64,000 bases of DNA from Alphaproteobacteria bacterium. Its GTDB lineage: Bacteria; Pseudomonadota; Alphaproteobacteria; Rs-D84. The stretch spans positions 144,007-208,006 of the forward strand of contig JAFVUD010000005.1 of NCBI GenBank assembly GCA_017502865.1, given 5' to 3'. Positions within the stretch are counted from its first letter, which is position 1. The number at the start of each line of letters is the position of its first letter. Position numbers and translations under genes: made by a program. Under the pieces are notes generated by a model that was not told the origin of the DNA, made no database searches, and saw only the letters and a list, made by a program, of their open reading frames with translations. Of the stretch, positions 6,374-59,822 are shown piece by piece.

Positions 6374-6424
6374 CCCCACCGGGCACAAAAACACCCGCAA
6401 ACCCGCAGAAATCCGCCATTTTTT
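6374..6424. repeat. ~52-bp direct repeat, copy 1 (CCCCACCGGGCACAAAAACACCCGCAAACCCGCAGAAATCCGCCATTTTTT)
   Basis: Matches 7309-7361 with 2 substitutions and a 2-nt indel. Confidence 0.8.
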
Positions 6425-7028: not shown

Positions 7029-7056
7029 ACTATACATAATATACATTATACGCCTT
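7029..7056 (-). other. dif-like Xer recombination site candidate
   Basis: The minus-strand 28-mer AAGGCGTATAATGTATATTATGTATAGT matches E. coli dif GGTGCGCATAATGTATATTATGTTAAAT at 21/28 positions, including a 16-nt exact run ATAATGTATATTATGT (hand alignment). Confidence 0.55.
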
Positions 7057-7308
7057 TTATATATTGCTATAACCTGCCGTTTTCCGCCACTTTTTATCCC
7101 ACCCATTACACAACAAATAATTATTTATAATTTCGGTACAGCACTTATATTTTTTATAATTCATCACCTAACCCAGACCACCTGGACCATCGGGTTCGCC
7201 TATTGTACCCGCACAATACCTTTACACACCCGTATTACTCAAAAACAACACCCCGCATATCCATCCACACAAAAAATCACCTTTACCCATAAAACACATG
7301 CCCACCCA

Positions 7309-7361
7309 CCCCACCGGACACAAAAAAACACCCGCAAACCCGCAGAAATCCGCTATTTTTT
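7309..7361. repeat. ~52-bp direct repeat, copy 2
   Basis: See copy 1. The copies are 935 bp apart inside the ORF-free region. Confidence 0.8.
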
Positions 7362-7450
7362 ACCAAAAAACCGCCAAAATCCGCCTATTTTACGCCTTTT
7401 TTGCAAACAAACTATACATAATCCACCAACACCAAACATACCATCCGCAA

Positions 7451-7483
7451 ATAAAAAGTGGCGATGCAAATATGCCCGCCACC
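7451..7483 (-). terminator. intrinsic terminator after mscL
   Basis: GTGGCG...CGCCAC stem with a 13-nt loop, followed by TTTTTAT on the minus strand. Confidence 0.6.
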
Positions 7484-7506
7484 TAATTAAATCAATTTGT
7501 CACAAA

Positions 7507-9819: not shown

Positions 9820-9833
9820 TTCGAATGCACAAA

Positions 9834-9866
9834 CAAAAAAAAATCCCGCACTTGCGGGATTTTTTA
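9834..9866. terminator. bidirectional terminator between the OMP gene and prfA
   Basis: A-run, ATCCCGC-ACTT-GCGGGAT, T-run. Confidence 0.8.
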
Positions 9867-9880
9867 TTTGAACACAAACC

Positions 9881-10945
9881 CTACTCCATATTTGCCAGTT
9901 GTTCCAACTGATCCGCCGCAATCAGCGCATCTATCATTTCATCCAAACCGGCACCGCCCGCCAAGATATCATCTAACTTGTACAAGGTCAGTTTAATACG
10001 ATGATCCGTCACACGCTGTTCTGGGAAATTATATGTACGAATCTTTTCGCTGCGATCACCCGAACCAACCATAGTCTTGCGTGACGCATTACTGGCCGAT
10101 TCCTGTTCCATACGCTGTTTTTCATACAATTTAGAACGCAACACAGACATCGCCGAAATCTTGTTCTGCAACTGACTGCGTTCATTTTGACACGTCACAA
10201 CAATCCCTGTTGGAAAGTGGGTAATACGAATTGCACTGTCAGTTTTGTTAACGTGCTGACCACCTGCCCCAGATGCACGAAAAATATCGATACGAATATC
10301 TTTATCTTCGATAACAACGTCAATTTCTTTGGCCTCGGGCATAACTGCAACCGATGCCGCACTGGTATGAATACGACCACCCGCTTCGGTTTCCGGCACA
10401 CGCTGAACACGATGAATACCTGATTCAAACTTCATACGTCCATACGCACCCGCCCCATCGATTTTGAACACAATTTCTTTATACCCACGCAGCGATGTTG
10501 CATTTTCTTCGATAACCTCTACCTTCCAGCCCTGACGCAACGCATAGGATTTATATTGATTGTACAAATCACCTGCAAACAACGCAGATTCTTCACCACC
10601 AACACCGGCACGAATTTCCATAATCACACTGTTATCATCCGCATCATCACGTGGCAACAATGGAATTTGCAGATTTTTTTCAATATCTGGCAGTTTGTGA
10701 TTTAATTCATGCAACTGATCATTTGCAATTTCACGCAATTCTGCATCACCCATCATTTCTTCGGCATCTTTGATACCAGCGACCGTCTGGAAATATTCGC
10801 TAATCAGCGGCAATATTTCATTCAATCGTGAATATTCTTTGGACAACTTGGTCAATTCATCGCCCGACACCGAACCCGAATTCATCTGGGCTTCTATATC
10901 CGCAGCACGTGCCTGAATATCTTTTAATTTCTGTTCAATAATCAT
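9881..10945 (-). CDS. prfA: peptide chain release factor 1
   Basis: 354 aa containing the PET-like tripeptide region and the GGQ motif (SGAGGQHVNKTDSAIRITH). Confidence 0.95.
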   Translation of the reverse strand: MIIEQKLKDIQARAADIEAQMNSGSVSGDELTKLSKEYSRLNEILPLISEYFQTVAGIKDAEEMMGDAELREIANDQLHELNHKLPDIEKNLQIPLLPRDDADDNSVIMEIRAGVGGEESALFAGDLYNQYKSYALRQGWKVEVIEENATSLRGYKEIVFKIDGAGAYGRMKFESGIHRVQRVPETEAGGRIHTSAASVAVMPEAKEIDVVIEDKDIRIDIFRASGAGGQHVNKTDSAIRITHFPTGIVVTCQNERSQLQNKISAMSVLRSKLYEKQRMEQESASNASRKTMVGSGDRSEKIRTYNFPEQRVTDHRIKLTLYKLDDILAGGAGLDEMIDALIAADQLEQLANME

Positions 10946-26920: not shown

Positions 26921-26950
26921 ATAAAAAACAAAACCGCCCGAATGGGCGGT
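26921..26950 (-). terminator. terminator after the HdeD-like gene
   Basis: ACCGCCC-GAAT-GGGCGGT with a T-run on the minus strand. Confidence 0.7.
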
Positions 26951-26954
26951 ATTT

Positions 26955-31136: not shown

Positions 31137-31327
31137 ATCTCTGGTCGGGGCGACAATGAGTAGATTTCGCAAGCAACGCACAGCGAAATCGTTAGGAATG
31201 CCACGCAGCCGACACAACGTGTCGTGCGAGTGAAACGTTCGAACCCGACAAAAGAATTTTGTCGTTCAAATCCGCACGTTCCAAACAGAAAATTAAAACC
31301 GCCGCAAATGCGACGGTTTGAATTTTC

Positions 31328-31405
31328 TGGTCGGGGCGAAAGGATTCGAACCTTCGACACCTTGGTCCCAAACCAAGTACTCTACCAGACTGAGCTACGC
31401 CCCGA
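31328..31405 (-). tRNA. tRNA-Pro (anticodon UGG)
   Basis: The reverse complement is TCGGGGCGTAGCTCAGTCTGGTAGAGTACTTGGTTTGGGACCAAGGTGTCGAAGGTTCGAATCCTTTCGCCCCGACCA. Anticodon stem CTTGG/CCAAG, loop TTTGGGA, and encoded CCA. Confidence 0.9.
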
Positions 31406-34649: not shown

Positions 34650-37600
34650 TTACTTCCAGTAACTTGGGATACTTGAATAATCCGTCAAGCCTGTCGAATT
34701 ATAATACGTGTACTGCCAACCCGGATTTGACCAGATTTGGTATAAATATTTACCATTAATCTTGGCCGACGGTCCACGCAACGCTGGGCAATATGCAAAT
34801 GTATAGTAGAACATATAACTTGCATAACTACCACTTATGTTACCAAACAGGTTTGCTGGAATCGCTGCCAATTTGTCACAACTATAGAATGTTCGATAAA
34901 ACATTGAGTATGCTGGCGTTCCACTCAAACCACCAAACAGATTTTCCGGTATAGTGGTCAGATTGTCACAGTCATTAAATGTGTTATTGAACATGTACTG
35001 CGCCGGTGTGCCCTTGATACCCGCAAACAAACCTGCTGGAATCGTTGTCAAACCATCACAATTACTGAACGTTCCTTCAAACATATATGTTGCTGGTGCC
35101 CCTGAAATGCCGGCAAACAAACCTGCTGGGATTGTTGTCAGACCCGAAGAAGCAAAGGTATACATGAACATATTTGACGCTGGTTTTCCTGTAATACCCG
35201 CAAACAAACCTGCTGGAACTGTCTTCAAGCTAGAACAGCCACTAAAGGTATAATCAAACATATTTGATGCTGGTACCCCTGAAATACCTGCGAACAGATC
35301 TTCTGGAACAGCTGTCAGCTTTTTACAACCATTAAATGTATTTGCAAACATATATTGTGCTGGTTTCCCTGAAAGACCCGCAAACAAGTCTTCTGGGATT
35401 GTTGTCAAATTATCACAACCTTCAAAAGTCCCTTCAAACATGTACTTTGCTGGTGCCCCCTTGATACTTGCAAACAAACCTGCTGGCACTGTAACCAAGT
35501 TGTCACAGTTATTAAATGTATCCTGGAACATGTTTGTTTCTGGTGCTCCCTTGATACCTGCGAACAAGCCTTCTGGGATTGACTTAATCGCTGTTCCAGC
35601 GAACGCATTCTTAAACATTGACTTTGTTGGTTCACCTGTAATACCTGCGAACAAACCTTCTGGGATTGCCGCCAGCTTAGAACAGTTATTAAATACATTC
35701 TGCAACATATAGTCTGCCGCATCACCCTTGACACCTGCAAACAATTCTTCTGGAATTGCTGTCAAGCTGGAACAGCCGCTAAATGTAGAGTCAAACATAT
35801 ACTTTGCCGGCGCCCCACTGATACCTGCGAACAAGTCCGATGGAATTGCCTTCAGGCTGGTACAATCCTGGAATGTCTGCTTAAACATATTCTGGACTGG
35901 TGCCCCCTGGACATTCGCAAACAGACCCTCTGGCAATGTTGTCAATCCATTACAGTTGCTAAATGTTGCTTCAAACATACTTGATGCTGGTGCACCCGAA
36001 ATGCCTGCGAACAAGCCCGCTGGCACAACTGTCAGCCTGTCACAATCATAAAATGTCTGCTTGAACATATTTGCCGCTGGTGCCCCCTTGATACTTGCAA
36101 ACAAACCTTCTGGCAATGTTGCCAAGTTATAGCATCCATAGAACGTCTGATAGAACAATGATTCCGCTGGTGCCCCTGAAATGCTTGCAAACAAACCTTC
36201 TGGAACAGACCGCAATGCGGAACAACCATAGAATGTTCCATTGAACAGGTGTTCAACCGGTGCCCCAGAAATGTTTGCGAACAAACCTTCTGGAACTTCT
36301 GTCAAATTATAGTTCCCTTCAAATGTCTGATAGAACATATATGGACGTGGTGCCCCCTTAACCCCTGCAAACAAATCTGCCGGAACTGTCTTCAAAGACG
36401 CATCCGCAAATGTCTGATAGAAACTTGGCTGGCTACCATCGGCCAATGTTGGGAACACATCCCCCAACTGGCCTGTCACAGACGCAACACGTGTAAATTT
36501 CACTGTTGCGGTCTTGTCATTGGTGCTATATGCTGTCGCCAAACCTGCAACCTTAACATTATACGCAGCAGACTTTGCATACATGTGATTATACGATTTC
36601 AAACTTGTATCTGTACGTTCAATCACACTGGATGAACCATCACCCCAATCAACATAGAACGTACCCTTTGCCGACAACGAAATCGTCACATCTGATGTAT
36701 TGGTTGTTGTGTATTCAAACGCCCAATCATCAACACATGCCTGTGCACCCCAAATTGCTGGCATCATGACACCCGTTTCACAGTTATTATCTGTCAAACC
36801 GGTACAACCTGTGTACATATCACCAACCTGGGCTGATGTTGCGTTTGGCCAAATTTCATACAAGAATTTACCACCCGATTTAACAGATGTACCTGTCAAA
36901 CCTGAACATCCCTGGAACGTTTGTACAAACATATTGCTTGTGGCCGACCCTGACAATGTACCTGCAAAAACATTCGATATGTCGCCTTTCATGTTCTGAC
37001 AGCCAAAGAATGTCTGATAGAACATATAACTTGCTGGTGCACCGTTTAATGTACCAAACATACCAGACAGTTCTGCTTCTTCCAACCCAGAACAATTATA
37101 GAATGTTTGCTGGAACATATAACTTGCTGGGGCACCTGAAATACCGGCGAACAATGGCCCACCAATACCCGTCAAACCAGAACAGTTATAGAATGTTTGA
37201 TAGAACATATAACTTGCTGGCGCCCCTTTGATACCTGCGAACAGACCCGCTGGGATTTCACCTGTCAAACCATAACAATTATAGAATGTCCGATAGAACA
37301 TATATTGACGTGGTGTGCCACTTATCCCGCTGAACAATGTTGCTGGGATTTCACCTGTCAAACTAGAACAGTTATAGAATGTCTGATAGAAGCTTGGCTG
37401 GCTGCCATTAGACAACGTTGGGAAGATTTCACCCAAACTACCCTTTACCCCCGCTGTAGCGGTACTGAATGAAATTGCTGCTGTTGAATACGATGTATTA
37501 TACGCTGTTGCCAACCCCGCCAATTTAACAGTATACACACCCGACTTGTTATACGAATGACTATAATAAGTGCTATATGTATCTGTCTTATTTATAACCT

Positions 37601-40600
37601 GTGTGTAACCATCACCCCAATCGACATAGAACGTACCAGCCGCTGCGATATAGAATGAATAGCTATACGTATTGGTTGTAGTCAGTTCTAATGGCCAGTA
37701 GTCCAAGCATACCGGACCACCCCAACTTAATGGGACCTGGTCTTCTGAACCACATCTCATCCCTGTCAGGCCCACTGCACCTTCATACACCCCACCAATA
37801 TGGTCGGTTGTTGCATCTGGCCAGATATTATACAAATATTCACCGCCAGCACGCACAGTATTACCCGTCAAATTGCGGCAATTAGCGAACATATAGGCAA
37901 ACATATTTGTTGCCGCATTACCAGACAATGCCCCAATAAAGTTAGCAGGGATTTCGCCTGTCAAACCAGAACAGTTATAGAATGTCTGATAGAACATATA
38001 CTGTGCTGGTGTGCCGCTGATTCCTGCAAACAATGCACCACCAATACCCGACAATCTGTTACATCCATAGAATGTCTGATAGAACATATACGCACGTGGC
38101 TGCCCCGAAATACCGGCAAACAAGTCCGCTGGGATTTCACCGGATAAACCACTACAGCCATTGAACGTCCGATAGAACATATACGCACGTGGTTGCCCCG
38201 AAATACCTGCGAACAAGTCCGCTGGGATTTCATCATAGATATTATTTGCCCCATAGAACGTCTGATAGAAGCTTGGCTGGCTGCCATCAGCCAATGTTGG
38301 GAATATCGCACCCAAACTGCCCGACAGTTTTGTCAAAGAACCTGTATTGCTAAACGAAATCGTAGCCAATTCATCATCGGTATTATATGCCGTTGCCAAA
38401 CCGCCCATTTTAATCGTATATGTATTTGCACGGCGATACGAATGTGAATGACCTGTCCGTGATGCATCTGTCTTTTCGATTACATCAACCTTGCCATCGC
38501 CCCAACTGATATAGTATTTACCAGCCGCCGCCAAATAAACTGTCATCGAAGACACATTGGTTGTCGCCGTTTCAAATGCCCAATCAGAAAAATCAACATC
38601 CGAAACGTCTTCACATGCGGTCATATCTGCTGGGATATTGGCCACATCTTCCAACTGGGTATCACCACAATACATGGTCTTCATATACGATGGGTCCCAA
38701 ATATTGTACAGATACTGTTCACCTGTCTGGGCCGACGTGCCACTTAATGATGTGCAACGTCCAAACGTACCATAGAACATATCTGTTGCTGCTGTCCCTG
38801 AAATCCCCGCAAACAAGCCTGCTGGGATTTCGCCTGTCAATCCTGTACAGCCCCAGAATGTTTGTTCAAACATATATGGTGCCGGGGTGCCTTCAATACC
38901 TGCGAACAAGTCCGCTGGGATTGGGCCTTCTAACCCTGTACAATCTGCAAATGTACGTGTGAACATATCCTGGGCTGGTGCTCCCTTAATTCCACTGAAC
39001 AATGTTGCTGGAATTGTTCCGGTCAATCCTGAACAGCCTTCAAATGTCCCCATAAACATCCCATACGATGGGGCACCCTGGATTCTTGCGAACAATGTCG
39101 CTGGGATTGATCCTGTCAACCCTGAACAACCCTTGAATGTTTCACGGAACAGTTCAGCTGATGGCTGTGCATACAAATCTTCAAACAGATCTGCTGGGAT
39201 TGAACCTGTCAAGCCAGAACAACCCATGAATGTTTGATAGAACTTCTTGCTTTCTCCATCAATGCCGCCCATTGCCAACATATTTCTTGGGAACAATTGT
39301 TCTGGGATTTCACCCTTCAAATTCTTGCAGTTATAGAATGTTCTATAGAAGTTTGGCGATGGAATCAATACACCCACAACCGATGGCATAACTGGGAACA
39401 ATTCACGGAAAGACCCCTCAATCTTAGCCAAGTTATAGTTCGATTCAAAACTAATCGTTGGAACCGTGGCACCCCCAACATATCCTACCGCTTCACCTGA
39501 TATTTTGATTTTGTATTCACCCGCTTTGTCATACTTATGTGAAAATACCAGTTCATCTACACTATCATGCGTCACAGTGTCAAATGTACCATCACCCCAA
39601 TCAACACCGAAAACACCCGATGCATTCATACGGAATTCAAATGATGTCGTATCTGGTGTTGTTGTTGCGATAAACTTTGGTTCGCCCAGTCCTGTCTGGC
39701 CCAAACCACCCCAGTTTTCTGGGATTGTCGCATAATCATCCAACTTATTACTGTGCATAAATGAATATGTCAATGCATCTGGCCAGATTTCATACAAATA
39801 CTTACCACCCTTACCCTTAGCAGATGGCCCTGCCAAATCAGACATGCTAAAGAATGTATAGAAGAACATACCTAATTCTGCAGAACCTTCGATACCTGCA
39901 AACAGGCCATCCCCAATACCACTTAATCTATCATCTTCGATAAATGTAAATCCAAACATACCCAATGCTGGGGCCCCTTCAAGATTACGGAACAACCCAC
40001 CCGGGATTTCGCCAGACAATTGTGTGCAGCCCGCAAAAGTACCTAAGAAACAACCAACGCTTGGTGCACCCTTAACACCCTTGAACAAATCTTCTGGAAT
40101 TGTGCCAGACAAGCCAAAACTGGCCCCAAATGTACCTGCAAATGCCAATTCACCCGGTGCACCATTCAGGTTTCCAAACAAAGATTCTGGAATTGTTCCT
40201 GTCAAGCCTTCACCCTTAAAGATATTTACATCTGGGCCATTATTCACCAATTCAATTATGTCAATCCCACTGCCGGCAAATGTACCCAAATACTGTGCCG
40301 CCATTGGACGACCAGATATACCTGCAAACAATTTCGCTGGGATGCGACCTTCCAAATATGGCATAGCCGCAAAAGTCAATGCAAAAGCGGCTTCTTTTGC
40401 CTGGCCTTTTAAGCCTGAAAACAAAGTCGATGGCAATTCGCCCTTGAACCCGGATACCGCAAATGTGCCCAAGAACGCCCCACGTTCCGGTGCACCACGC
40501 AAATTAGCATACAATTTTGCTGGTATTGAACTTTCTACAAGTGGCGTTAACAAGAAAGTACCTGCATTCATCGCATATGATGGATGGCCGGTCAAACCTG

Positions 40601-41462
40601 CAAATAATTTTTCTGGAACAGATTTCAAACCAGAAAGCGCAAAAGTCCCCGTGAACATCAATGGGGATGGCTGACCATAAACACGGCTGAACAATCTTTC
40701 TGGAATAATACCATCCCAATTCATGGCCCCTGCGAAAGTCAGCAAGAAACTTGGGTTATCGCCATTTTCCAGCGTTGGGAAAACCGAACCCAAACTGCCA
40801 TCGATATGTGCAATACGATCTGAATCTGTTACAAAAGAAATGGTGATACCTTCTGGTGCAATCTGTAAATTATCAAACGCATGTTCATCAAAATCAACGA
40901 TAAAGCGTTGCAGGGAATTAATAATTGGGTCAACATCCATATATGCATAGCCTGTGGCACGGCCACCAAAGCGAACTACATATTTACCTGGTGTTGCATA
41001 ACTGTGGTTATATGGCATAAATTCTGTGTTATCACGCACAATTGTTTCAACCGTACCATCACCCCAGTCAACCATAAATGTCCCCGCAGCCCCCAGGATA
41101 AACCCAAACGATTCTGCATTTTCGGTGGTAGTAACCGAGAATGGCCATTCTTCATAGACCAGTTCATTAACCGCCTGTTCTGTGACTGTAATATCAGCAA
41201 TCTGATTCGTTGCATATTCACCGGCACCGTATCTTGATGTCACTTCGCCATTCAATATTTCATTGGCTACGTCAACCGCAGTCAGCAGATATTCCATATT
41301 TGCCACCTGGCGTGGATTACGCAACTTGGCATTATATGGCACTTCCACCCCGATACGATTCGCAATCATGTTATGTACATACTCTACATTTGCGATCTGT
41401 GCAGCATGCGCAGCAAATGCAAAAAATGCACCAAAAACAACGGTTAACAGTTTCTTTAACAT
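34650..41462 (-). CDS. giant secreted repeat protein made of five concatenated PKD-like + 30-aa-repeat family units
   Basis: 2270 aa from the ATG at 41462 (MLKKLLTVVFGAFFAFAAHA). Five WGDG...H.Y domains, dozens of LFAGI.GAPA..MF..TF..C..LT.IP repeats, and five YLY.IW terminal motifs. Terminators lie on both sides. Confidence 0.85.
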   Translation of the reverse strand: MLKKLLTVVFGAFFAFAAHAAQIANVEYVHNMIANRIGVEVPYNAKLRNPRQVANMEYLLTAVDVANEILNGEVTSRYGAGEYATNQIADITVTEQAVNELVYEEWPFSVTTTENAESFGFILGAAGTFMVDWGDGTVETIVRDNTEFMPYNHSYATPGKYVVRFGGRATGYAYMDVDPIINSLQRFIVDFDEHAFDNLQIAPEGITISFVTDSDRIAHIDGSLGSVFPTLENGDNPSFLLTFAGAMNWDGIIPERLFSRVYGQPSPLMFTGTFALSGLKSVPEKLFAGLTGHPSYAMNAGTFLLTPLVESSIPAKLYANLRGAPERGAFLGTFAVSGFKGELPSTLFSGLKGQAKEAAFALTFAAMPYLEGRIPAKLFAGISGRPMAAQYLGTFAGSGIDIIELVNNGPDVNIFKGEGLTGTIPESLFGNLNGAPGELAFAGTFGASFGLSGTIPEDLFKGVKGAPSVGCFLGTFAGCTQLSGEIPGGLFRNLEGAPALGMFGFTFIEDDRLSGIGDGLFAGIEGSAELGMFFYTFFSMSDLAGPSAKGKGGKYLYEIWPDALTYSFMHSNKLDDYATIPENWGGLGQTGLGEPKFIATTTPDTTSFEFRMNASGVFGVDWGDGTFDTVTHDSVDELVFSHKYDKAGEYKIKISGEAVGYVGGATVPTISFESNYNLAKIEGSFRELFPVMPSVVGVLIPSPNFYRTFYNCKNLKGEIPEQLFPRNMLAMGGIDGESKKFYQTFMGCSGLTGSIPADLFEDLYAQPSAELFRETFKGCSGLTGSIPATLFARIQGAPSYGMFMGTFEGCSGLTGTIPATLFSGIKGAPAQDMFTRTFADCTGLEGPIPADLFAGIEGTPAPYMFEQTFWGCTGLTGEIPAGLFAGISGTAATDMFYGTFGRCTSLSGTSAQTGEQYLYNIWDPSYMKTMYCGDTQLEDVANIPADMTACEDVSDVDFSDWAFETATTNVSSMTVYLAAAGKYYISWGDGKVDVIEKTDASRTGHSHSYRRANTYTIKMGGLATAYNTDDELATISFSNTGSLTKLSGSLGAIFPTLADGSQPSFYQTFYGANNIYDEIPADLFAGISGQPRAYMFYRTFNGCSGLSGEIPADLFAGISGQPRAYMFYQTFYGCNRLSGIGGALFAGISGTPAQYMFYQTFYNCSGLTGEIPANFIGALSGNAATNMFAYMFANCRNLTGNTVRAGGEYLYNIWPDATTDHIGGVYEGAVGLTGMRCGSEDQVPLSWGGPVCLDYWPLELTTTNTYSYSFYIAAAGTFYVDWGDGYTQVINKTDTYSTYYSHSYNKSGVYTVKLAGLATAYNTSYSTAAISFSTATAGVKGSLGEIFPTLSNGSQPSFYQTFYNCSSLTGEIPATLFSGISGTPRQYMFYRTFYNCYGLTGEIPAGLFAGIKGAPASYMFYQTFYNCSGLTGIGGPLFAGISGAPASYMFQQTFYNCSGLEEAELSGMFGTLNGAPASYMFYQTFFGCQNMKGDISNVFAGTLSGSATSNMFVQTFQGCSGLTGTSVKSGGKFLYEIWPNATSAQVGDMYTGCTGLTDNNCETGVMMPAIWGAQACVDDWAFEYTTTNTSDVTISLSAKGTFYVDWGDGSSSVIERTDTSLKSYNHMYAKSAAYNVKVAGLATAYSTNDKTATVKFTRVASVTGQLGDVFPTLADGSQPSFYQTFADASLKTVPADLFAGVKGAPRPYMFYQTFEGNYNLTEVPEGLFANISGAPVEHLFNGTFYGCSALRSVPEGLFASISGAPAESLFYQTFYGCYNLATLPEGLFASIKGAPAANMFKQTFYDCDRLTVVPAGLFAGISGAPASSMFEATFSNCNGLTTLPEGLFANVQGAPVQNMFKQTFQDCTSLKAIPSDLFAGISGAPAKYMFDSTFSGCSSLTAIPEELFAGVKGDAADYMLQNVFNNCSKLAAIPEGLFAGITGEPTKSMFKNAFAGTAIKSIPEGLFAGIKGAPETNMFQDTFNNCDNLVTVPAGLFASIKGAPAKYMFEGTFEGCDNLTTIPEDLFAGLSGKPAQYMFANTFNGCKKLTAVPEDLFAGISGVPASNMFDYTFSGCSSLKTVPAGLFAGITGKPASNMFMYTFASSGLTTIPAGLFAGISGAPATYMFEGTFSNCDGLTTIPAGLFAGIKGTPAQYMFNNTFNDCDNLTTIPENLFGGLSGTPAYSMFYRTFYSCDKLAAIPANLFGNISGSYASYMFYYTFAYCPALRGPSAKINGKYLYQIWSNPGWQYTYYNSTGLTDYSSIPSYWK

Positions 41463-41520
41463 ATTCCCACCTTTCTTTATGATAACCACTGTACTAAATC
41501 ATACGAAATCTACACAAGCA

Positions 41521-48333: not shown

Positions 48334-48355
48334 AAAGAAAAATATATCACACAAA

Positions 48356-48380
48356 AACCGCCATTTCGGCGGTTTTTTTT
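48356..48380 (+). terminator. terminator after ssb
   Basis: AACCGCC-ATTTC-GGCGGTT followed by T8. Confidence 0.85.
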
Positions 48381-48482
48381 CTGCCGACACAATCCCCCCA
48401 GGTCACAATTCCCTGTTCGCCCCATTTACCTGGGTTCCACGGTCAAGCCGTGGAATGACAAAGATTGATAAATTTCGAAATT

Positions 48483-48778
48483 AAATTAGAACGATTTAGA
48501 TGTGGAACGGTCCCGGCAACGTAGTGCACAAACCGCTACATGAGTTGTCGGGACCGCCCAACCCCTTGCCTGTTAAAAATAAATTAGAATGATTTAGATG
48601 TGGAACGGTCCCGGCAACGTAGTGTACAAACGCTACATGAGTTGTCGGGCCACCCAACCCCTTGCCTGTTAAAAATAAATTAGAATGATTTAGATGTGGA
48701 ACGGTCCCGGCAACGTAGTGTACAAACGCTACATGAGTTGTCGGGACCGCCCACAGATGAATTATTATAATTTATTTT
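48483..48778 (+). repeat. tandem array A: three ~97-nt hairpin-containing repeat units
   Basis: Units start at 48483, 48581 and 48677. The conserved hairpin is CCCGGCAAC-GTAGTG-TACAAA-CGCTAC-ATGA-GTTGTCGGG. The last unit has a distinct AT-rich tail. Confidence 0.9.
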
Positions 48779-51700
48779 TTAGAAGCGGTAAGAACCTGAG
48801 ACTTTAATATTATGCAACTGGATGGCATCGTTGTATTGATATCTGTAATCAACACCAATTTGAATGCCGGTTGCGGAAATCAGTTCAAAACCACCACCAA
48901 TATTTGCCCACAATGGATCAATATCCAATGCATAGTCGGTGAACGAATGGGCCGGACCAAATTTATATTGAACCTGGTCTGGGGCACCCAGAACATCATA
49001 TTCGACACCAATCGATGCATATGGTCTGATTTGGAACCATGCTGTTGGATAGATGCGTTTCTGGGCCGTTAATGTGTACCCAGGGGTCAACATCAAATAG
49101 CCATCTGATTCCATATTCATGTAATCGCCACTGCCGGCGGTTTCATCAACACTGAAACCAAAATTATAACCAACACGTGCATACAGATTTCCAACGATAT
49201 ACTGGTTCAACCAATCGTGCATCAACCCCCATTCAGATGTCAATGCCAACGCCATACCATCACCATCGATTGTATCCATGAAATTCATGTTTCTGTCTGT
49301 ATCTAACATATGGATATCCAAGAACGCATTTCCATACGCACGCACAGAATTAGTCAATGTTTTAGCCAAATAACCGCCCAGGCCGATATTTGTATCTGTG
49401 ACGGACACAGAAACATTTCCTTGTTCTGTGATGGCACCATAACTTAAATCCATAGAATCTGAATTATCGCTGGACATATGTGAAACACGACCTGTCAACC
49501 CCAGAATCAGTGTTTCAGATTCCTGCCAGTCAAATCCACCGGCAACACTGAAACGATTTCCACCAACACGTTTGTTATCTGTCACATTCTGGCGGAACAT
49601 ACCATAGTCAACATCAACCCATGCTTTTTTCAAACTGCGGTTTCTGTTCCAGATAAATTCATCCATCATGCGATCTTCGAAATCACGGAACGATGTATGT
49701 TCATTCAACATAACTGCACCCGCAATTTGTTCGATTTCACGTGGCTGAACCAATCTGCTGAATCGTGCCAATGGTGCACCTTCGGCATTGGCAACATAGT
49801 GTTCCATACGATTGTACAATTCATTTGCCAATTTAGACATATCTGTCCCTTCGAACAACAATGGAATCACTTCAATTGGCGTACTGTTAAAGAATCCCTG
49901 ATTAACCAATTGACCATCCAACAGATCGTCCAACGCACCGGCCGCCATATATTCACCATCTGTATGATCTGGTTCACGGCCAACAATTGGCTGGATACGC
50001 ATATTTTCAATCAAAACAGGGCCACCAAAGCGTGGATCAAACACGACATACAAACTGTCATTTTCACCATTTGCATCCGCATCACGAACCGAGATATACG
50101 CCGGCAATTCTTCGCCCGATTTATTATTCGCATCAATCGCATCCAGATAGTTAAAGCATTTTGAACCATCTGCATTACAGAACATAACTTCCAGATTGCG
50201 AACCTTGGCCAATGCATCAAATTCTTCGATACCATCTTTGGCGTTTAACAACCAAATCGCAGTACCCTGGTCAACGGCATCAAATATATTAATACCGATT
50301 TGTGAATCCGCCAACTGAACTTCTTTGTTACCCAAATTCAGCCCAGAATCATATACTTTACCCGATATAAATTTGCCATTAACCGAAATCATTGGTTCTG
50401 CATCGGCTGCATTTGTGATATCACCCAGTGTATCATCTTCGGCCAGGCTGACGGTTGCCCAATAATTCTTGGCACTGGAATTCATTGTGGTACCATCTGC
50501 ATATTTCAAGATTGCAACATTCAATCGGCTGTTTTCATCAAATGTATAATTACCACCAATACTCATTTGTTCCAGACCGATAAAGTCAACCCCACCTGAA
50601 ACATCACCACCAACCGACACATCCATCCAGTTTGCATATGGCGACGCAACAAATGCTAAATCAACTGCATCTATGCTGCCAGAAACATCAATATCACTGC
50701 TGTTCACAACCATTGTCCCAGATTTCTGGTCAATCGCCCCAACATTCATATTAGATGTATTTATAACATAATCAGATGCCGCCACATTTACATCACGACT
50801 GGCCAATGTACCTGCATAATTTTGATATAATGTACCATCGGTTGTAAATGGTGTTGCCAAATCCAATCCAGCCCCAGACAACTGAATCATACCATCGTTC
50901 ATGGCCAATGAATTCATTGTTATAAACCCATTACCCGAACCAATATACAACGTACCATTATTCGCAACATCTGCGAAATCAGCAGATTCCTGGGCAAATA
51001 TTGCCAAAGAACCGCTGTTTTCCAAATTCTGCGACGCAAACGATTTCGCATTTACCATCACGCCGGCACCATCTGCCACAGAAACATTACCAACAACATT
51101 GAATAAATCTGTAATGTTATATGAAACCGTATTTTCATCTGCGACAAAATTACCACCAATGTTCATACTGGCCGCCTGAACACTTGATTCATCGGCTGTC
51201 AAATTCAGCATACCATTTTTAGCAGTACCCTGGTTCAAATCGCCTGCAACGCTAATATCGCCACCGACGATTGTGCGTTCCGCATCAATATTTGCCCCAC
51301 CCCCAGACACTGTCAAACCATATGAAACATCGAATTGTTTTGCATCAACCGACACTAAACCACCCGTTGATGTAATTGAATTCGCAGACACATTGTTGGC
51401 ATTTGCTGTAAACGCACCACTGTTTGTCACATTTTCAACAGACACCGCATTTACATTCCCCTGGCCTAACAAAGTTGTCAAACCTGTATTTGTAATATCC
51501 TGGGCGGTTATCATTGTACCCGATGCATACAGCGATCCACCAACCGTTGTATCATTTTTGATATCAACCAATTTATTCGCCACCAGGTTCAATTCACCAC
51601 CTGCATCAATCAAGCCAGAAACATTGATATTATTCGCAGATTTCAATGTTAACCCGTCACGTGTTGCCGCCATAACTGTAATACCACCGGCAACATCAAT

Positions 51701-54088
51701 ATCCTGATTTGCCCCGGTTGATTGCAATGTCATACCGTCTGTACCAATTATCGACAGCCCCCGTGTTGGATTCAAACTGCTGTCATACCAGATACCATTT
51801 TTAATATTAATACCGCCCTGGTCTGCAACAACAAATTGACCATACAGATTAATCAAACCATCTTGTTCAACCAGCGATGCAACATTTGCCCCCGCGTTAT
51901 AGATTTCAACAGTACCACCATTTTGTGCAACAACATCACCTGTCACATCCAGTGTCACATCCTCTACCTCTGGAATATACATATCATAGGTTGTCGGCGC
52001 ACCCGCATCTGGAATTTTATATATAAACGCAACCTGCCCCTGGCCCGATGCTACAACATCACCACCCACGGTCATACCGGCTGCAGAAAATCCCATTTTT
52101 CGAACATTACTGGCATCTGTTGCGGTAATATCACCATCAACATTGATTGTATTATCAGATGCCAAAACAAAACCTTGGACACCCTTGGCTGCGACATTTA
52201 CATCACCTGCCGCCCCTGTTGTTGCAGATGTTGCTGTGATATTACCAGCAATTTCAACACTGCCTGCAACATTAACCGTGTTCGTATTGCCGCCAATATT
52301 CAGCACACCACCCGTCACAGTCAAATCACCCGAACCTGTTAAATAACGGTCGTCTTCTGCGATTGCAAACTGACCGATTAAGGCATCAATGTTTGTTGTA
52401 CCACCCTGAACATCCAGACCACCCATTGTGATTGGCCCTTCGCCTAAATCTGAACCCTTGATGGTGGTAGAACCATTTTTATTTATAACATTCCCTAAAA
52501 TTGCGATATTACGCCCTTCGATTAATGTAGAACCACTGTTATTGTTCACATTTCCCACAACCCCAACGGATCCATATTCATCTGTATATGCCACGACACG
52601 CAAATTACCGCCATCATTTACCAGATTACCCCCCGACACCGTTGGTTCAGACGCATTATCCTCTTGCAGCATTTGCCCCAACATAATCGTTTCTGCATTC
52701 AATGTTGTATTTCCAGAATTCGAAACATTTTCATCGACATACAAATACGAAGACGCCGTCAAATGTGCGGTTGCATCTTGGGCTGTGGTCAAAGATTTAA
52801 TTGCAATTTCACCATACACACTGTTGCTGTCGTTATATGGCTGAATTGAACCCGCAACGGCATCATTATTCACTTCGGCCACCATATTCAGTGTACCACC
52901 CGATGCATAAACGTCTTGGGCCCAGATATCACCAGCCTTGATATTCATGATTGCATTTTTATTATTTGCCCCATTTTGAATATCCAAAACTATCAGTTCG
53001 CCACGTGTCACATTCAAATCGAACTGTTTTGCATCGTTCGACATCATAGCAAACACTTGGTCTTCCGTAGTATTCCCCCAATAAATCTGCCCTGTGGTCA
53101 AACTGAATGTATTATCAGTCCCCATTGTGCTTAAATCCACACCATTGGCGAAATAAGTTTCCCCAGAAACATTGATATTCACATTACCGCCATTGACAAA
53201 AGACGCATTATTATCGTCACCACCATTTAATTGCAGCGATCCTGTATTAATAACTAACGTCCCATTTGCCGAATCGTTTTTGACTGTGCCCCCAACATTA
53301 ATCGAACTGTTGACGGCATTAAATGTCAAACTGTCACCTGAATTTTCCAGATTACCATCAATATAAACAATCGATCCATTGTTAACATTGATTTCCATAT
53401 CACCGGCATTATTCTGGATATTCCCCACCGTTTCATCATCGATACTGCCGTCCAACGCTTCTTCCTGTGGGCCACGCATATCCAACGAACCCGCATTAAC
53501 AACAAACTTACCCGTACTGTCGTTTTGTAATTTTTCTGCTTCCAGCGTATCTGTCGCAGTGATTGTTGTATTACCTGTACCTGTTGCCGCCAAATCTTGA
53601 ACTGAGATATATTCCGCCCCCAGTGTCAAATCCCCATTACTGGTCACATGCTGTGCATACAACCCCACAATTCCATCATCAATCGTCAGCGTCCCCAGGT
53701 TTTCGATTGCACCAAAATACGCTTCTGAAATCTGTGCATTGTCTGTTGCATTTGCATGAATGCCCAACGTACGACCATTTGCCACCGTCAGTGCCCCCAG
53801 CACTTCGATATTACCGCTGCTTAAAATCGTGTACGAAGAATTCGTATCTGGCCCGACATAGACCCAGCCATCTGGACTGGCCGCAGGAATTTGTGCCCCA
53901 ACAGACAATCCGTGTGTTACCGTCATACCACCGGTCCCCACAACAAAACCACTACCACCGGTAAAATGATATACGTCTGTCGTCGCATTCAACCCATCAA
54001 ATGTTGCATTATTTGGATAAACTAACGGTTCGGCCACCGCACCAAAAGGCGCCAAGCAGCACATCAGTGACATAATTTTCTTGAACAT
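48779..54088 (-). CDS. large autotransporter (beta-helical passenger plus C-terminal barrel)
   Basis: 1769 aa from the ATG at 54088 (MFKKIMSLMCCLAPFGAVA). The passenger is G/N/T/V-rich and repetitive. The C-terminal ~280 aa show alternating beta-strands ending in ...SGSYRF. Confidence 0.8.
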   Translation of the reverse strand: MFKKIMSLMCCLAPFGAVAEPLVYPNNATFDGLNATTDVYHFTGGSGFVVGTGGMTVTHGLSVGAQIPAASPDGWVYVGPDTNSSYTILSSGNIEVLGALTVANGRTLGIHANATDNAQISEAYFGAIENLGTLTIDDGIVGLYAQHVTSNGDLTLGAEYISVQDLAATGTGNTTITATDTLEAEKLQNDSTGKFVVNAGSLDMRGPQEEALDGSIDDETVGNIQNNAGDMEINVNNGSIVYIDGNLENSGDSLTFNAVNSSINVGGTVKNDSANGTLVINTGSLQLNGGDDNNASFVNGGNVNINVSGETYFANGVDLSTMGTDNTFSLTTGQIYWGNTTEDQVFAMMSNDAKQFDLNVTRGELIVLDIQNGANNKNAIMNIKAGDIWAQDVYASGGTLNMVAEVNNDAVAGSIQPYNDSNSVYGEIAIKSLTTAQDATAHLTASSYLYVDENVSNSGNTTLNAETIMLGQMLQEDNASEPTVSGGNLVNDGGNLRVVAYTDEYGSVGVVGNVNNNSGSTLIEGRNIAILGNVINKNGSTTIKGSDLGEGPITMGGLDVQGGTTNIDALIGQFAIAEDDRYLTGSGDLTVTGGVLNIGGNTNTVNVAGSVEIAGNITATSATTGAAGDVNVAAKGVQGFVLASDNTINVDGDITATDASNVRKMGFSAAGMTVGGDVVASGQGQVAFIYKIPDAGAPTTYDMYIPEVEDVTLDVTGDVVAQNGGTVEIYNAGANVASLVEQDGLINLYGQFVVADQGGINIKNGIWYDSSLNPTRGLSIIGTDGMTLQSTGANQDIDVAGGITVMAATRDGLTLKSANNINVSGLIDAGGELNLVANKLVDIKNDTTVGGSLYASGTMITAQDITNTGLTTLLGQGNVNAVSVENVTNSGAFTANANNVSANSITSTGGLVSVDAKQFDVSYGLTVSGGGANIDAERTIVGGDISVAGDLNQGTAKNGMLNLTADESSVQAASMNIGGNFVADENTVSYNITDLFNVVGNVSVADGAGVMVNAKSFASQNLENSGSLAIFAQESADFADVANNGTLYIGSGNGFITMNSLAMNDGMIQLSGAGLDLATPFTTDGTLYQNYAGTLASRDVNVAASDYVINTSNMNVGAIDQKSGTMVVNSSDIDVSGSIDAVDLAFVASPYANWMDVSVGGDVSGGVDFIGLEQMSIGGNYTFDENSRLNVAILKYADGTTMNSSAKNYWATVSLAEDDTLGDITNAADAEPMISVNGKFISGKVYDSGLNLGNKEVQLADSQIGINIFDAVDQGTAIWLLNAKDGIEEFDALAKVRNLEVMFCNADGSKCFNYLDAIDANNKSGEELPAYISVRDADANGENDSLYVVFDPRFGGPVLIENMRIQPIVGREPDHTDGEYMAAGALDDLLDGQLVNQGFFNSTPIEVIPLLFEGTDMSKLANELYNRMEHYVANAEGAPLARFSRLVQPREIEQIAGAVMLNEHTSFRDFEDRMMDEFIWNRNRSLKKAWVDVDYGMFRQNVTDNKRVGGNRFSVAGGFDWQESETLILGLTGRVSHMSSDNSDSMDLSYGAITEQGNVSVSVTDTNIGLGGYLAKTLTNSVRAYGNAFLDIHMLDTDRNMNFMDTIDGDGMALALTSEWGLMHDWLNQYIVGNLYARVGYNFGFSVDETAGSGDYMNMESDGYLMLTPGYTLTAQKRIYPTAWFQIRPYASIGVEYDVLGAPDQVQYKFGPAHSFTDYALDIDPLWANIGGGFELISATGIQIGVDYRYQYNDAIQLHNIKVSGSYRF

Positions 54089-54199
54089 TTTTTTCTTTTT
54101 CTGTTTTATTTCCAATCCGATTGTGTTTATATTATACCGCAAAATGAATTTAATGCAAAGGTAAACTGTGCATAAACTCATTATTATTTATCAAAGTAA

Positions 54200-57410: not shown

Positions 57411-58868
57411 CTACATTGGACAAACCCAATTTGCCGACAAAATCGCATTATAGCCCCGCTTATAAACCGCACTTTCTCCCTCATCAATAGTCATCGATGC
57501 ACCATACCTGTCATAACCATCCATAACATATAGCTTCCACCCTTGACGCGACACACTACACTCCCACTCTGGCGGTGTTGTACACAAACTGGAATCCGGG
57601 CTAATGACATCACCATAATGTACCTGTATATAGGCATCTGTTTCATCGCCACCATCACCACAATCATACGCAATTATATATGTTTCTGGGGTCCAAATGG
57701 CATGCAATGTTGTGTCCGCTTTCCATGAATATCGGATTGCAGTATATGGATCAATAACCGTTTCCGTATCACCAACCGTCCATCCCGAAACATAATGACC
57801 AGCACGAGAACATCCTCTGCCATAATTCGCCGGACTGAATAATTCATTATAACCAACCGTTACGACAAGATCTTCATCCCAACCGTATTTATCGCCATCG
57901 GCATCGGTCCCACAATCAAACGTCAGTTGATATTCCCCTTCGTCAACGGTGCGATCCCATTCCCACACCGCACGCAGCACGACATTATGTGGCCACTGGA
58001 ACTTGGCACTCTGTCCTGCTGGAATAAACAGTCCCAAATCCTGGTTCGCCATACTGTAAACATCGTATCCCTTGAACACAGCACCCGCCGGACGTTGACA
58101 TTGACCCTCGCTAGGGGCACCAGGGGTAAAGTTCGAACCATATCTGGTCGCATTTTTTACATTCATTGGCCCCTTAACCCACGGATATTCACAGTCATTA
58201 CACAAACGAACCCAATACATCAATCGCTGGGACCAAACGGCGGTGGCGGTCATATCACTGGCCCATTTCCAAACCGGTGCCGATTTGTGATTATATGTTG
58301 TTCCATCAATTTTCCACCCGGAAATATAGTACCCATCACGATAGCATGTACCACCGGTATGCCCAACACCAAATGCCGAACCATATCGAATCGTCTGGGA
58401 TTCGGGCGGTGTACCATAATCACCACCGCAATCATAATTCAGTGTAAACGACGGTGCACAAATCTTGTGCGTGGTTGGTGCAACATAATATGCCGTACCA
58501 TCTACATCAACATTCAATGTTCCCGCCTGGCTGCCCGATGGCATATCGGCATAGCAAACCATATCATTATATTTTGTGGCTAATTTACGTGTGGTGGATG
58601 CAGTCTTGAACAAATCAATACGTGTGCCATTTTCTGCAACAATTGCACGCACCCCCGCATCGCACAGATCTGTACATTCACCATTTAAATTTTCCATCTG
58701 GGTAACCGCCGGCCCGGTATATGGCACCATGCCCGTTGGACACACCGATTCCGCATATGCCAAACCAACAATAAACAATCCCGCGACGGCTAAACTACCG
58801 CTGGGGGGGGGGGGGGGTAAAAACCGCAGAAATCCGGCACACTTGCCGTTATCACAACATTTTTTCAT
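57411..58868 (-). CDS. secreted Cys-rich protein with three Listeria-Bacteroides (InlB B)-repeat-like domains; C15 tract in 5' coding region (operon gene 1)
   Basis: FTLNYDCGGDYGTPPESQTIRYGSAF...GYYISGWKIDG, YQLTFDCGTDADGD...GHYVSGWTVGD, and YIIAYDCGDGGDETDAYIQVHYGDV...RQGWKL. The N-terminus reads MKKCCDNGKCAGFLRFLPPPPPSGSLAVAGLFIVGLAYA. Confidence 0.7.
   Translation of the reverse strand: MKKCCDNGKCAGFLRFLPPPPPSGSLAVAGLFIVGLAYAESVCPTGMVPYTGPAVTQMENLNGECTDLCDAGVRAIVAENGTRIDLFKTASTTRKLATKYNDMVCYADMPSGSQAGTLNVDVDGTAYYVAPTTHKICAPSFTLNYDCGGDYGTPPESQTIRYGSAFGVGHTGGTCYRDGYYISGWKIDGTTYNHKSAPVWKWASDMTATAVWSQRLMYWVRLCNDCEYPWVKGPMNVKNATRYGSNFTPGAPSEGQCQRPAGAVFKGYDVYSMANQDLGLFIPAGQSAKFQWPHNVVLRAVWEWDRTVDEGEYQLTFDCGTDADGDKYGWDEDLVVTVGYNELFSPANYGRGCSRAGHYVSGWTVGDTETVIDPYTAIRYSWKADTTLHAIWTPETYIIAYDCGDGGDETDAYIQVHYGDVISPDSSLCTTPPEWECSVSRQGWKLYVMDGYDRYGASMTIDEGESAVYKRGYNAILSANWVCPM
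58803..58817 (-). repeat. homopolymeric C15 tract (G15 on + strand) inside codons 18-22 of CDS 57411-58868
   Basis: Counted directly: 15 consecutive G at 58803-58817, translated as PPPPP. Confidence 0.95.
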
Positions 58869-58958
58869 GATTTTTGCGTCTTCCTTCTTTTTACCCTATT
58901 CTATCATAACACGAATTTATTCACAAGTACATTTTCCATATCTTTGCCAAACAAAAAT

Positions 58959-59255
58959 AAATTAGAATGATTTAGATGTGAAACGGTCCCGGCAACGTAG
59001 TGTACAAATCGCTACATGAGTTGTCGGGCCACCCACCCCCTTGCCTGTTAAAAATGAATTAGAATGATTTAGATAAAAGAAAATCGGGAATCGTAGTGTA
59101 CACGACGCTACATAAGATTCCCAGACAACCACACCCCCTTGCCTGTTAAAAATAAATTAGAATGATTTAGATGTGGAACGGTCCCGACAACGTAGTGTAC
59201 AAACGCTACATGAGTTGTCGGGACCGCCCACAGATGAATTATTATAATTTATTTT
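58959..59255 (+). repeat. tandem array B: three ~97-nt units of the same element
   Basis: Units start at 58959, 59056 and 59154. The third unit is 104/105 identical to the third unit of array A. The middle unit has a swapped outer stem. Confidence 0.9.
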
Positions 59256-59822
59256 TTATTCGTCGTCTGGAACTTCTTCCTCCTCCTCATCCTCTTCTTC
59301 AACGGCATTCAAATCAATTTCTTTTGGAATACCCAAAATATCTTCGATTTTGTCAGATGCAGAATCCAAATCCATTTTATGCAGAACTGCAAATTCCTGG
59401 GCCATACGTTCCAACGCACGCAAATATAATTGCCGGGCCGAAAATGTCATTGTATCTGCCGCTGTGCGACGTTGCAGGTCACGCACCACTTCGGCCAATT
59501 TCATTGGGTCACCCGAATTAATGTTTTCTTCGTACTGGGCGGCACGACGGGCCCAAATCATACGTTTTACACCGGCTTTACCCTTGGCTGATGCGATGGC
59601 CTCATCCATTTTTTTAGTTGTCGTCAACGGACGCAGCCCTGAAATTTCTGCACGTTCGATTGGCACACGCAATGTCATATGATTGCGTTCAAAATCGATA
59701 ACCAACATCTTTATTTTCTGGCCTGCGACGGTCTGTTCTTCGATTCGCAACAGTTTACCAACACCCTGGGTTGGATAAACGACATACTGTCCGGCTTTAA
59801 AATCTAACTTTTTACTTGGCAT
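59256..59822 (-). CDS. carD: CarD/CdnL family RNA-polymerase-binding transcription regulator
   Basis: FKAGQYVVYPTQGVGKLLRIEEQTVAGQKIKMLVIDFERNHMTLRVPIERAE, with an acidic C-terminal tail. Confidence 0.85.
   Translation of the reverse strand: MPSKKLDFKAGQYVVYPTQGVGKLLRIEEQTVAGQKIKMLVIDFERNHMTLRVPIERAEISGLRPLTTTKKMDEAIASAKGKAGVKRMIWARRAAQYEENINSGDPMKLAEVVRDLQRRTAADTMTFSARQLYLRALERMAQEFAVLHKMDLDSASDKIEDILGIPKEIDLNAVEEEDEEEEEVPDDE

Follow-up and report, generated by a model that had tools for sequence, protein, structure and literature searches.

What does it mean when both arms of a folded stem in a repeated DNA element are replaced at once and still pair? The question is raised by a 64,000-nt stretch of the genome of an uncultured alphaproteobacterium (contig JAFVUD010000005.1, positions 144,007 to 208,006; hereafter the window), which carries two tandem arrays of a hairpin-forming element. 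An original prediction, made from the letters alone, described six copies of a ~97-nt element and proposed that the middle unit of the second array had exchanged its outer stem in place for another complementary one, as would be expected of selection on a folded RNA or cruciform. Our analysis indicates that the six units belong to an undescribed, lineage-specific, non-coding family of palindromic repeats of Candidatus Enterousia, resembling miniature inverted-repeat transposable elements (MITEs) and repetitive extragenic palindromic (REP) sequences. Judged by comparison with sister strains, the apparent swap is a unit of a different subfamily that was shuffled into a rapidly reshuffled array.

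The middle unit of array B in sister strains

The two arrays, A (48478–48777, units A1 to A3) and B (58955–59254, units B1 to B3), contain three units each in a common orientation, and Tandem Repeats Finder (TRF) called them as 48478–48753 with a period of 96 and 58953–59216 with a period of 98. TRF, the count of a conserved 18-mer and a covariance model agree on the six copies first described. Specifically, the 18-mer AATTAGAATGATTTAGAT has six sites in the window at no more than one mismatch (0.12 expected by chance), the linker CCCCTTGCCTGTTAAAAAT has four (0.05 expected by chance), and the covariance model, run over the 64 kb with its filters off, found no units beyond the six. Two marginal matches to the model, at 9804–9894 and 31264–31351, proved to be ordinary bidirectional terminators and not units.

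An alignment of the six units and a scan for inverted repeats both reproduce the difference that had been noticed in B2. The outer stem is CCCGGCAAC/GTTGTCGGG in A1, A2, A3 and B1, and B3 has CCCGACAAC; where the non-B2 units carry CCCGRCAAC/GTTGTCGGG, B2 carries GGGAATC (59086–59092) paired with GATTCCC (59116–59122), giving a hairpin at 59086–59122 in which ATAA replaces ATGA.

The B2 arm, AAAAGAAAATCGGGAATC, marks a subfamily that is common in other metagenome-assembled genomes (MAGs). To follow this stem at a single locus we compared contigs (given here by L numbers) that encode exactly identical CarD protein, the product of the gene next to array B. Three of these (L119, L120 and L124) have a single complete unit of the GTGG subfamily behind the gene, one (L125) has two units, and four (L121, L122, L123 and L126) have three units in other orders and combinations. 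Array B of the window is identical to that of L118, where B2 is likewise internal and has 7 bp left, GATTCCC being followed by filler and linker. In five of the identical-CarD contigs, by contrast with this truncated form, a B2-type unit stands as the complete terminal unit, with an 18-bp stem, a full right arm GATTCCCGATTTGCTTTT and then the right inverted repeat. Because a complete terminal unit of this type is found at the same locus in sister strains, B2 is a unit of another subfamily and not the outcome of compensatory mutation in place, and the double swap has to be given up. Between strains with identical CarD, the number of units thus varies from one to three, and their order and type differ too. 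Array A shows the same kind of variation: its counterpart in L129 consists of one complete unit, against three in the window. Independent samples yielded identical arrays: those of L118 and L128 agree with the window, L119 equals L120, and L121 is close to L122.

B2 is also a typical internal unit. Over all loci, the median number of paired mid-stem positions is 17 in terminal units and 7 in internal ones. Some internal units carry arms of two subfamilies (unit 1 of L121, unit 2 of L123 and units 1–2 of L126), and the junctions of internal units vary in position and are chimeric. Pairing is thus largely kept in the terminal copies and reduced in the internal ones, with their low median and occasional non-matching arms. 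Of two metagenome scans for CarD-end alleles, the first found nothing and the second gave two short contigs, in one of which the terminal unit has non-matching arms. In the metagenome contig L134 (JAEIGA011566661.1) the terminal unit combines a left arm of the C type, AAAAACAAATCGGGCATC, with a right arm of the G type, GTTGTCGGGACCGCCCAC, and stems either from crossing over inside the conserved tip or from chimeric assembly.

A repeat family of gut Alphaproteobacteria

A scan of species-representative genomes with the one left-arm 18-mer AATTAGAATGATTTAGAT, a search that selects for the left arm of the base and not the right, gave at least 117 loci. Nearly all of the loci listed lie in MAGs of Candidatus Enterousia or other gut Alphaproteobacteria from human, ruminant and poultry samples; the MAGs that bear the element belong to the order Rs-D84, and their genomes are mostly <1 Mb. 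About 11–12 of the listed genome matches fall outside Alphaproteobacteria, and these are bare 18-mers without a hairpin. From the listed loci we extracted 87 complete elements with 73 distinct cores, of which 77 were aligned. Copy number can be given roughly, with two arrays in the 64-kb window and at least ten loci in one MAG. All of the comparative data are metagenome assemblies, and the window and its arrays come from short-read ones.

In a complete copy, three nested modules make up an imperfect hairpin of ~105 nt. At the base stands an AT-rich inverted repeat of 23 nt that is conserved, its ends pairing over 23–29 nt, and the tip is a conserved stretch of ~24 nt, CGTAGTGTAC-loop-CGCTACATGAG. 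Between them lies a mid-stem of 18–19 bp that exists in more than ten mutually unrelated versions, the arms matching within each (for example GTGGAACGGTCCCGACAAC, AAAAAGAAATCGGGAATC, ACGCACGAACCCGAAACC, ATGGGATGGGGGCGACAAC, AAAAGTAGTGCCGGCAAT and ACAGTTAAAAACACCGGC). At least three further base types occur in other MAGs, combined with the same pool of mid-stems. Every inverted-repeat type has AGAT on either side of the variable hairpin, and all subfamilies have a fixed mismatch or bulge 5–6 nt into the stem. Subfamilies are near-identical between species whose genes differ by 10–25%. An array is made up of truncated internal units, connected by a linker particular to the species, and of one complete unit nearest the gene.

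One of the further bases, type 2, is a co-varying inverted repeat, AAATAAAAGATAATGGTATAGAT/AGATATGCCATTAGATTTTATTT, seen in L031 (3900–4380), L015 and L064, and a five-unit array behind the EF-P gene alternates type-1 and type-2 units. The linkers are a second, species-specific layer of repeats, as seen in the left flanks of elements in L001, L017, L063 and L112 and in L092. In some species the linker beside the left inverted repeat is a repeated canonical terminator hairpin, ACGCTAATCATGAATTTGTGATTAGTGTTTTTTT in the gene sense; others have unrelated linkers, such as the mini-hairpin CCCCTTGC or CACAGCACATCAGATGCG.

The family has no name that we could find, as had been suspected. At the gathering threshold Rfam returns only two tRNAs in the window and nothing at the units; at a permissive threshold the best matches are plant microRNA-precursor models, at 30.8 bits against a cut-off of 113 bits, of the kind that any long hairpin would give. 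Phage and plasmid collections hold no record that matches the element, three IMG/VR matches being chance 18-mers without the hairpin.

These surveys bear on one rival explanation, that the units resemble each other by chance, that the arrays are an artefact of assembly, or that they are similar to CRISPR (clustered regularly interspaced short palindromic repeats). Their tandem structure and short-read metagenome source would suit it. However, identical arrays recur in independent samples and hundreds of copies are spread across MAGs, there are no cas genes or domains in the window, the would-be spacers are palindromic and come from a small set that is common to different species, and no phage or plasmid is matched. 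We regard this explanation as effectively refuted.

Complementary changes in the stem and the strand that folds

The part of the original prediction that concerned the fold itself stood up well: the hairpin exists, and complementary changes maintain it. About 35 MAG species supplied 76 distinct complete copies, and in this set standard pairs occupy 95.0% of cells, compared with 84.4% in column shuffles and 38–48% when partners are slid. Double-sided changes are seen in 399 cells versus 141 in shuffles, a count that none of 500 shuffles reached, and 18 of the 37 main-stem pairs covary, including one pair of the base (columns 5/103, which are A-U, C-G or G.U). These counts take in related copies and so overstate the number of independent events; the conclusion is nonetheless robust because of the slid-partner control and the diversity of stems. 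The inner stem GTAGTG/CGCTAC, which had been named as part of the paired structure, does not covary. It varies on one side only, and the pairing that RNAalifold favours at this place is GTGTA/TACAT; the tip is accordingly better regarded as a motif conserved in sequence.

The two strands of the element do not fold equally well. The plus strand is more stable by ~12 kcal/mol (mean −48.4 against −36.6 kcal/mol) in 75 of the 76 copies, because of fixed G.U pairs in the conserved modules (columns 15/93, 19/89 and 46/63) and a tandem G.A that arises from the AGAT on both sides of the variable hairpin. This preference, which rests on few, inherited positions, is a lead that could reflect a single-stranded DNA substrate or an antisense transcript.

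Could each unit then, as the original prediction was inclined to think, be an independent structured small RNA (sRNA) of the plus strand, and the arrays tandem sRNA genes? The strong covariation and the more stable plus strand are what this would predict, and there is a weak promoter-like match, TTGCCA-16-AATGAT, at the first unit of array B. Yet scans of each unit for sigma-70 promoters and intrinsic terminators give nothing consistent and lend no support to a free-standing plus-strand RNA gene. The linkers are wholly different between species, the TTGCC motif that resembles a −35 box being absent from those of other species. Strand-specific wobble, which we tried as a sign of an RNA strand, gives no signal: among mismatches in the variable stem G.T (37) and A.C (45) are equally common. 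Internal units lose their pairing, position and polarity are bound to where an opposite-strand gene has its stop codon, and Rfam has no match. We therefore consider tandem sRNA genes very unlikely.

The same features invite comparison with a folded-DNA recombination site, similar to the attC sites of integrons, for which the plus-strand hairpin would be the substrate and arrays would grow by site-specific insertion of units. A conserved base and tip with a variable but paired middle, the fixed irregularity low in the stem, the AGAT flanks, one better-folding strand and a position at gene 3′ ends would all fit. Against this, the window encodes no integrase or recombinase, the elements are dispersed behind core housekeeping genes and form no cassette arrays, and the variable, chimeric junctions are better explained by homologous or illegitimate recombination than by a precise reaction. 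A site of this type seems to us highly improbable.

Elements abut stop codons and occupy the slot of terminators

We surveyed the context of 138 arrays of one to six units and measured the distance to the stop codon for the 101 complete arrays. In about 95% of complete arrays the gene on the right is oriented towards the element; 41 contexts are convergent, 24 are co-directional in this orientation versus one in the other, and three are divergent. Measured from the right end of the element, the stop codon of this gene falls between −13 and +8 nt in 95 of the 101 complete arrays, and in 35 of those 95 it is a TTA inside the inverted repeat. The left end is held more loosely, the stop codon of the left gene being within ~17 nt in 20 of the 41 convergent cases and 33–192 nt away in the rest. 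A signal for stop-codon read-through or frameshifting was considered and is ruled out, as both the frame and the distance between stop and element (−13 to +8) vary.

C-terminal sequences and Pfam matches identify the genes upstream of the element as housekeeping genes, for EF-P, SecB, YebC, FabF, ClpB, ribosomal protein S11, DnaN, FtsK, thioredoxin reductase, CarD and several outer-membrane proteins (OMPs). The 3′ end of the EF-P gene is occupied by an element in at least 19 species, and turnover of the element at this site is largely uncoupled from divergence of the genes. At the EF-P locus of L025, L069, L086, L091 and L108 the element fills the entire intergenic space between convergent genes, which end ...GSDNK(IN) and, for EF-P, ...EYVERAK; both stops lie within the inverted repeats, as the TAG of AAATTAG on the left and the TAA of AATTTATTT on the right.

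The window follows the same pattern. Unit A3 ends 1 nt short of the TAA stop (48779..48781, minus strand) of an OMP-like gene of 1800 aa (48779..54181), and B3 ends 1 nt short of the TAA stop (59256..59258, minus strand) of the CarD-family gene (59256..59822); the repeat sequence common to both arrays extends right up to the TAA of the minus-strand gene. Array A lies between the 1800-aa open reading frame (ORF) and ssb, and array B separates the CarD-family gene from the start of the minus-strand gene that follows. The 1800-aa ORF has no Pfam match, and its C-terminus, ...SGSYRF, resembles that of an outer-membrane beta-barrel.

This is the slot that canonical terminators take. In these MAGs, terminators made up of an A-tract, a GC-rich stem and a T-tract start a median of ~3 nt past the stop. 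Canonical bidirectional terminators that abut or overlap stops in the window lie at 9836–9873, 26926–26954, 31296–31320 and 48353–48377. Two comparisons of orthologous gene ends with and without the element, both between different species, show one kind of hairpin in the place of the other: behind CarD, L031 has a canonical terminator where the window has an array, and behind a DUF308 gene the window has a terminator (26926–26954) where L048 has an element, the flanks on either side being conserved. In 19 of the 24 co-directional arrays no further terminator precedes the next gene. Mid-stems that start with AAAA, the complete B2 type among them, combine a GC stem with TTTGCTTTT and are terminator-like.

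A proposed gene-end hairpin reshuffled by recombination

On this evidence we lean towards the view that the element is a MITE- or REP-like repeat that may serve as, or replace, the hairpins at gene ends and that is reshuffled by recombination. The complete, gene-proximal hairpin would be co-transcribed with the upstream gene and would act at its end, either as a substitute terminator or as a protector of the 3′ end, and this role would keep its arms complementary. Recombination through conserved segments of 40–60 nt (base, linker and tip) would spread the units and swap them among loci, and internal units, those of the AAAAGAAAATCGGGAATC subfamily such as B2 included, would be decaying by-products of the exchange.

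Several observations weigh against this reading. A selfish element confined to the permissive sites of a compact genome would show much the same distribution. The plus strand is antisense to the abutting gene, so that the hairpin in the mRNA sense is the weaker one; the GTGG subfamily of the window has no U-tract directly after its GC-rich stem; a consensus terminator scan calls nothing in array A or B; and array A is followed by a canonical terminator regardless, that of ssb, ~100 nt past the array in the sense of the 1800-aa gene. The addition of units joined by linkers is left unaccounted for by the mechanism we favour. Finally, some of the chimeric units could be errors of short-read metagenome assembly: repeats below the assembler's k-mer may still give chimeras, though identical alleles recur in independent samples.

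The first of these points leads to a rival in its own right, in which the element is purely selfish: a non-autonomous MITE, or an element similar to REP doublets forming hairpins (REPINs), mobilized by an enzyme in trans that recognizes the folded or inverted-repeat DNA. It would insert beside stop codons or into terminators as the only sites that are tolerated or targeted, and would do nothing for its host. Consistent with this, it has terminal inverted repeats, it is multi-copy with its subfamilies scarcely diverged between otherwise distinct species, it is present or absent at orthologous sites, and its arrays are hypervariable between strains; the orientation bias could stem from strand-specific insertion, and the better fold of the plus strand would suit a single-stranded DNA substrate. 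Other observations are harder to reconcile with it. The window encodes no transposase, and a search for a parent element, over about 0.8 Mb made up of 130 loci with 8-kb flanks and the window, found no left and right inverted repeats that lie more than 200 nt apart or have a gene between them. There is no clear target-site duplication. The element is flanked by A/T runs that merge with its ends and with the stop codon, and a T often precedes the left A-run and an A often follows the right T-run, but adjacency to stop codons alone would yield the same. The complete element has terminal inverted repeats, as a MITE does, and matches no known MITE. Genomes of <1 Mb usually purge selfish DNA, and the element persists in genomes of this size. 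It is also kept at the same gene ends in at least 19 species, and its pairing is kept in terminal copies while decaying in internal ones. Taken together, these points make a purely selfish element somewhat unlikely in our judgement.

A further alternative addresses how the arrays are made. A dedicated, hairpin-specific system might use the constant base and tip for recognition or processing and the exchangeable 18–19-bp stems for specificity, actively adding units beside stop codons and trading them between loci and species; examples would be an attC-like recombinase acting on the plus-strand hairpin, or processing of the hairpins into small duplex RNAs. We looked for a guide-like role of the variable arms and found no targets for them elsewhere in the window. 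A model of nested insertion, in which the variable hairpin would have entered a 42-nt carrier palindrome at AGAT, was likewise considered, and no empty carrier was found. We think a dedicated system quite unlikely.

Anatomy of the six units

The favoured reading distinguishes terminal from internal units, and the six units of the window divide in this way. The original length of ~97 nt describes the internal units; A3 (48673–48777) and B3 (59150–59254), the last units of their arrays, are complete hairpins of ~105 nt, closed by pairing of a left block, AAATAAATTAGAATGATTTAGAT, with a right block, AGATGAATTATTATAATTTATTT, that is present within the arrays in these two units only. The internal units (A1, A2, B1 and B2) lack the right block, and their shortened right arm runs into the linker. 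All six are annotated on the plus strand, and every unit is more stable on that strand than its own shuffles, with z scores of −2.5 to −3.2.

Array A begins with the internal unit A1 (48478..48576; 55.3 bits with the covariance model), which consists of a left conserved block (48478–48501), a left arm (48502–48520), the tip (48521–48543), a right arm (48544–48560) and the linker ACCCCTTGCCTGTTAA (48561–48576). The internal unit A2 (48577..48672) has its left block at 48577–48599, its hairpin, containing the shortened right arm GTTGTCGGGCCACCCA, at 48600–48656 and its linker at 48657–48672. A3, a complete palindrome (48673..48777; 117.4 bits, E = 2.5e-23), is made up of a left inverted repeat (48673–48695), an arm (48696–48714), the tip (48715–48736), a second arm (48737–48754) and the right inverted repeat (48755–48777). 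Outside the element, the canonical bidirectional terminator of ssb, AAAAACCGCC/GGCGGTTTTT, lies at 48353..48377.

In array B, the internal unit B1 (58955..59051; 40.1 bits) comprises a left block (58955–58977), an arm (58978–58996), the tip (58997–59019), a shortened right arm (59020–59035) and a linker (59036–59051). B2 (59052..59149), the internal unit of the different subfamily, scores 25.1 bits over 59086–59122; it has a left block (59052–59074), the left arm AAAAGAAAATCGGGAATC (59075–59092), the tip (59093–59115), the residual right arm GATTCCC (59116–59122), filler (59123–59133) and a linker (59134–59149). B3 (59150..59254; 119.2 bits, E = 1e-23), again a complete palindrome, runs from a left inverted repeat (59150–59172) through an arm (59173–59191), the tip (59192–59213) and a second arm (59214–59231) to the right inverted repeat (59232–59254), and folds at −56.6 kcal/mol on the plus strand (z = −12) and −46.3 kcal/mol on the minus strand.

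Other repeats in the window

Directly downstream of array B, a 485-aa ORF (57411..58868, minus strand) contains a run of 15 G at 58803–58817 (C15 in the sense of the gene), ~17 codons from its start. The G15 tract is absent from the sister strains L119 and L120, where the gene is called as 295 + 202 aa, and the ORF is a candidate for a phase-variable surface protein. Elsewhere, TRF found in-frame tandem repeats of 90–93 nt at 35017–38270 in a 2279-aa ORF (34650–41489, minus strand), and an 11-nt repeat, CAAACACAAAC, occurs 5.9 times at 6915–6981, inside a 1.4-kb stretch (6128–7506) without an ORF of 150 aa or more.

Relation to known repeats

The element is closest to the MITE-like and REP-like palindromic repeats of bacteria; it belongs to no named family and is not a new class. 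The Correia (NEMIS) elements of Neisseria, ERIC and YPAL of enterobacteria and RUP of the pneumococcus are MITE-like palindromic repeats (PMC2229807; PMC2267715). Our element resembles them as an intergenic, non-coding repeat in the range of 100–170 nt with ends that pair into one long hairpin, in its orientation-dependent behaviour, in having filled and empty sites between relatives, and in co-transcription with the upstream gene, which we infer for our element. It differs in having no sequence similarity to them, no demonstrated TA or other target-site duplication, and a right end tied to a stop codon, at a distance of 0–13 nt, in about 95% of arrays. In those families the ends are conserved and the interior drifts, whereas the element has constant ends and tip and many fully compensated versions of the mid-stem. 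To our knowledge, head-to-tail arrays of truncated units joined by linkers are not a feature of these families either.

REP sequences, which REP-associated tyrosine transposases (RAYTs) mobilize, are palindromes of 20–40 bp that bear at one end an unpaired tag, GTAG or CGTC (PMC3733652). With REPs, bacterial interspersed mosaic elements (BIMEs) and REPINs our element shares an extragenic, palindromic nature, clustering, a location for the most part behind genes, where neighbouring ORFs are convergent or unidirectional, proposed roles in termination or mRNA stabilization, and GTAG...CTAC motifs, which here lie in the tip. Unlike the tag of a REP, however, its GTAG and CTAC stand opposite one another within the apical stem, in a hairpin that measures 105 nt, and BIME clusters alternate in orientation whereas these arrays are strictly head-to-tail. 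No gene for a RAYT (a Y1 transposase) was found in the window or in the 8-kb flanks.

A canonical Rho-independent bidirectional terminator occupies the same slot, 0–10 nt after the stop, with the same order of A-tract, hairpin and T-tract; several mid-stems (AAAAGAAAATCGGGAATC...GATTCCCGATTTGCTTTT) resemble one, and orthologous sites hold one or the other. Compared with such a terminator the element is ~5 times longer, has an AT-rich, mismatched lower stem between its GC-rich part and the terminal T-run, and has a conserved tip and ends and multi-copy identity across loci and species.

Two other systems share traits with it. The variable-number tandem repeats of mycobacterial interspersed repetitive units (MIRU-VNTRs) form head-to-tail intergenic arrays of 50–100-nt units of fixed orientation, which overlap stop codons and differ between strains in the number of units; MIRUs do not form long palindromes and are believed to contain small coupled ORFs, whereas the units here are hairpins and their frame relative to the stop varies. 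Integron attC sites are imperfect palindromes of ~60–140 nt at gene 3′ ends, and resemble the element in conserving structure over sequence, in folding better on one strand and in having conserved irregularities in the stem; the element differs in that there is no integrase in the window, no cassette organization and no identified R and L core boxes.

Implications

We know of no report on the non-coding DNA of Enterousia and its order Rs-D84, uncultured gut organisms with genomes of <1 Mb, and of no bacterial repeat that combines a constant base and tip, a complementary mid-stem replaced wholesale, and anchoring to stop codons in one orientation. The arrays are likely to be a cause of contig breaks in MAGs of the Rs-D84 group, and, as they differ between strains whose flanking genes are identical, they can serve as strain markers. 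If the element does act as a portable terminator or 3′-end protector, it would mean that a minimal genome renews its gene-end signals by means of a mobile module.

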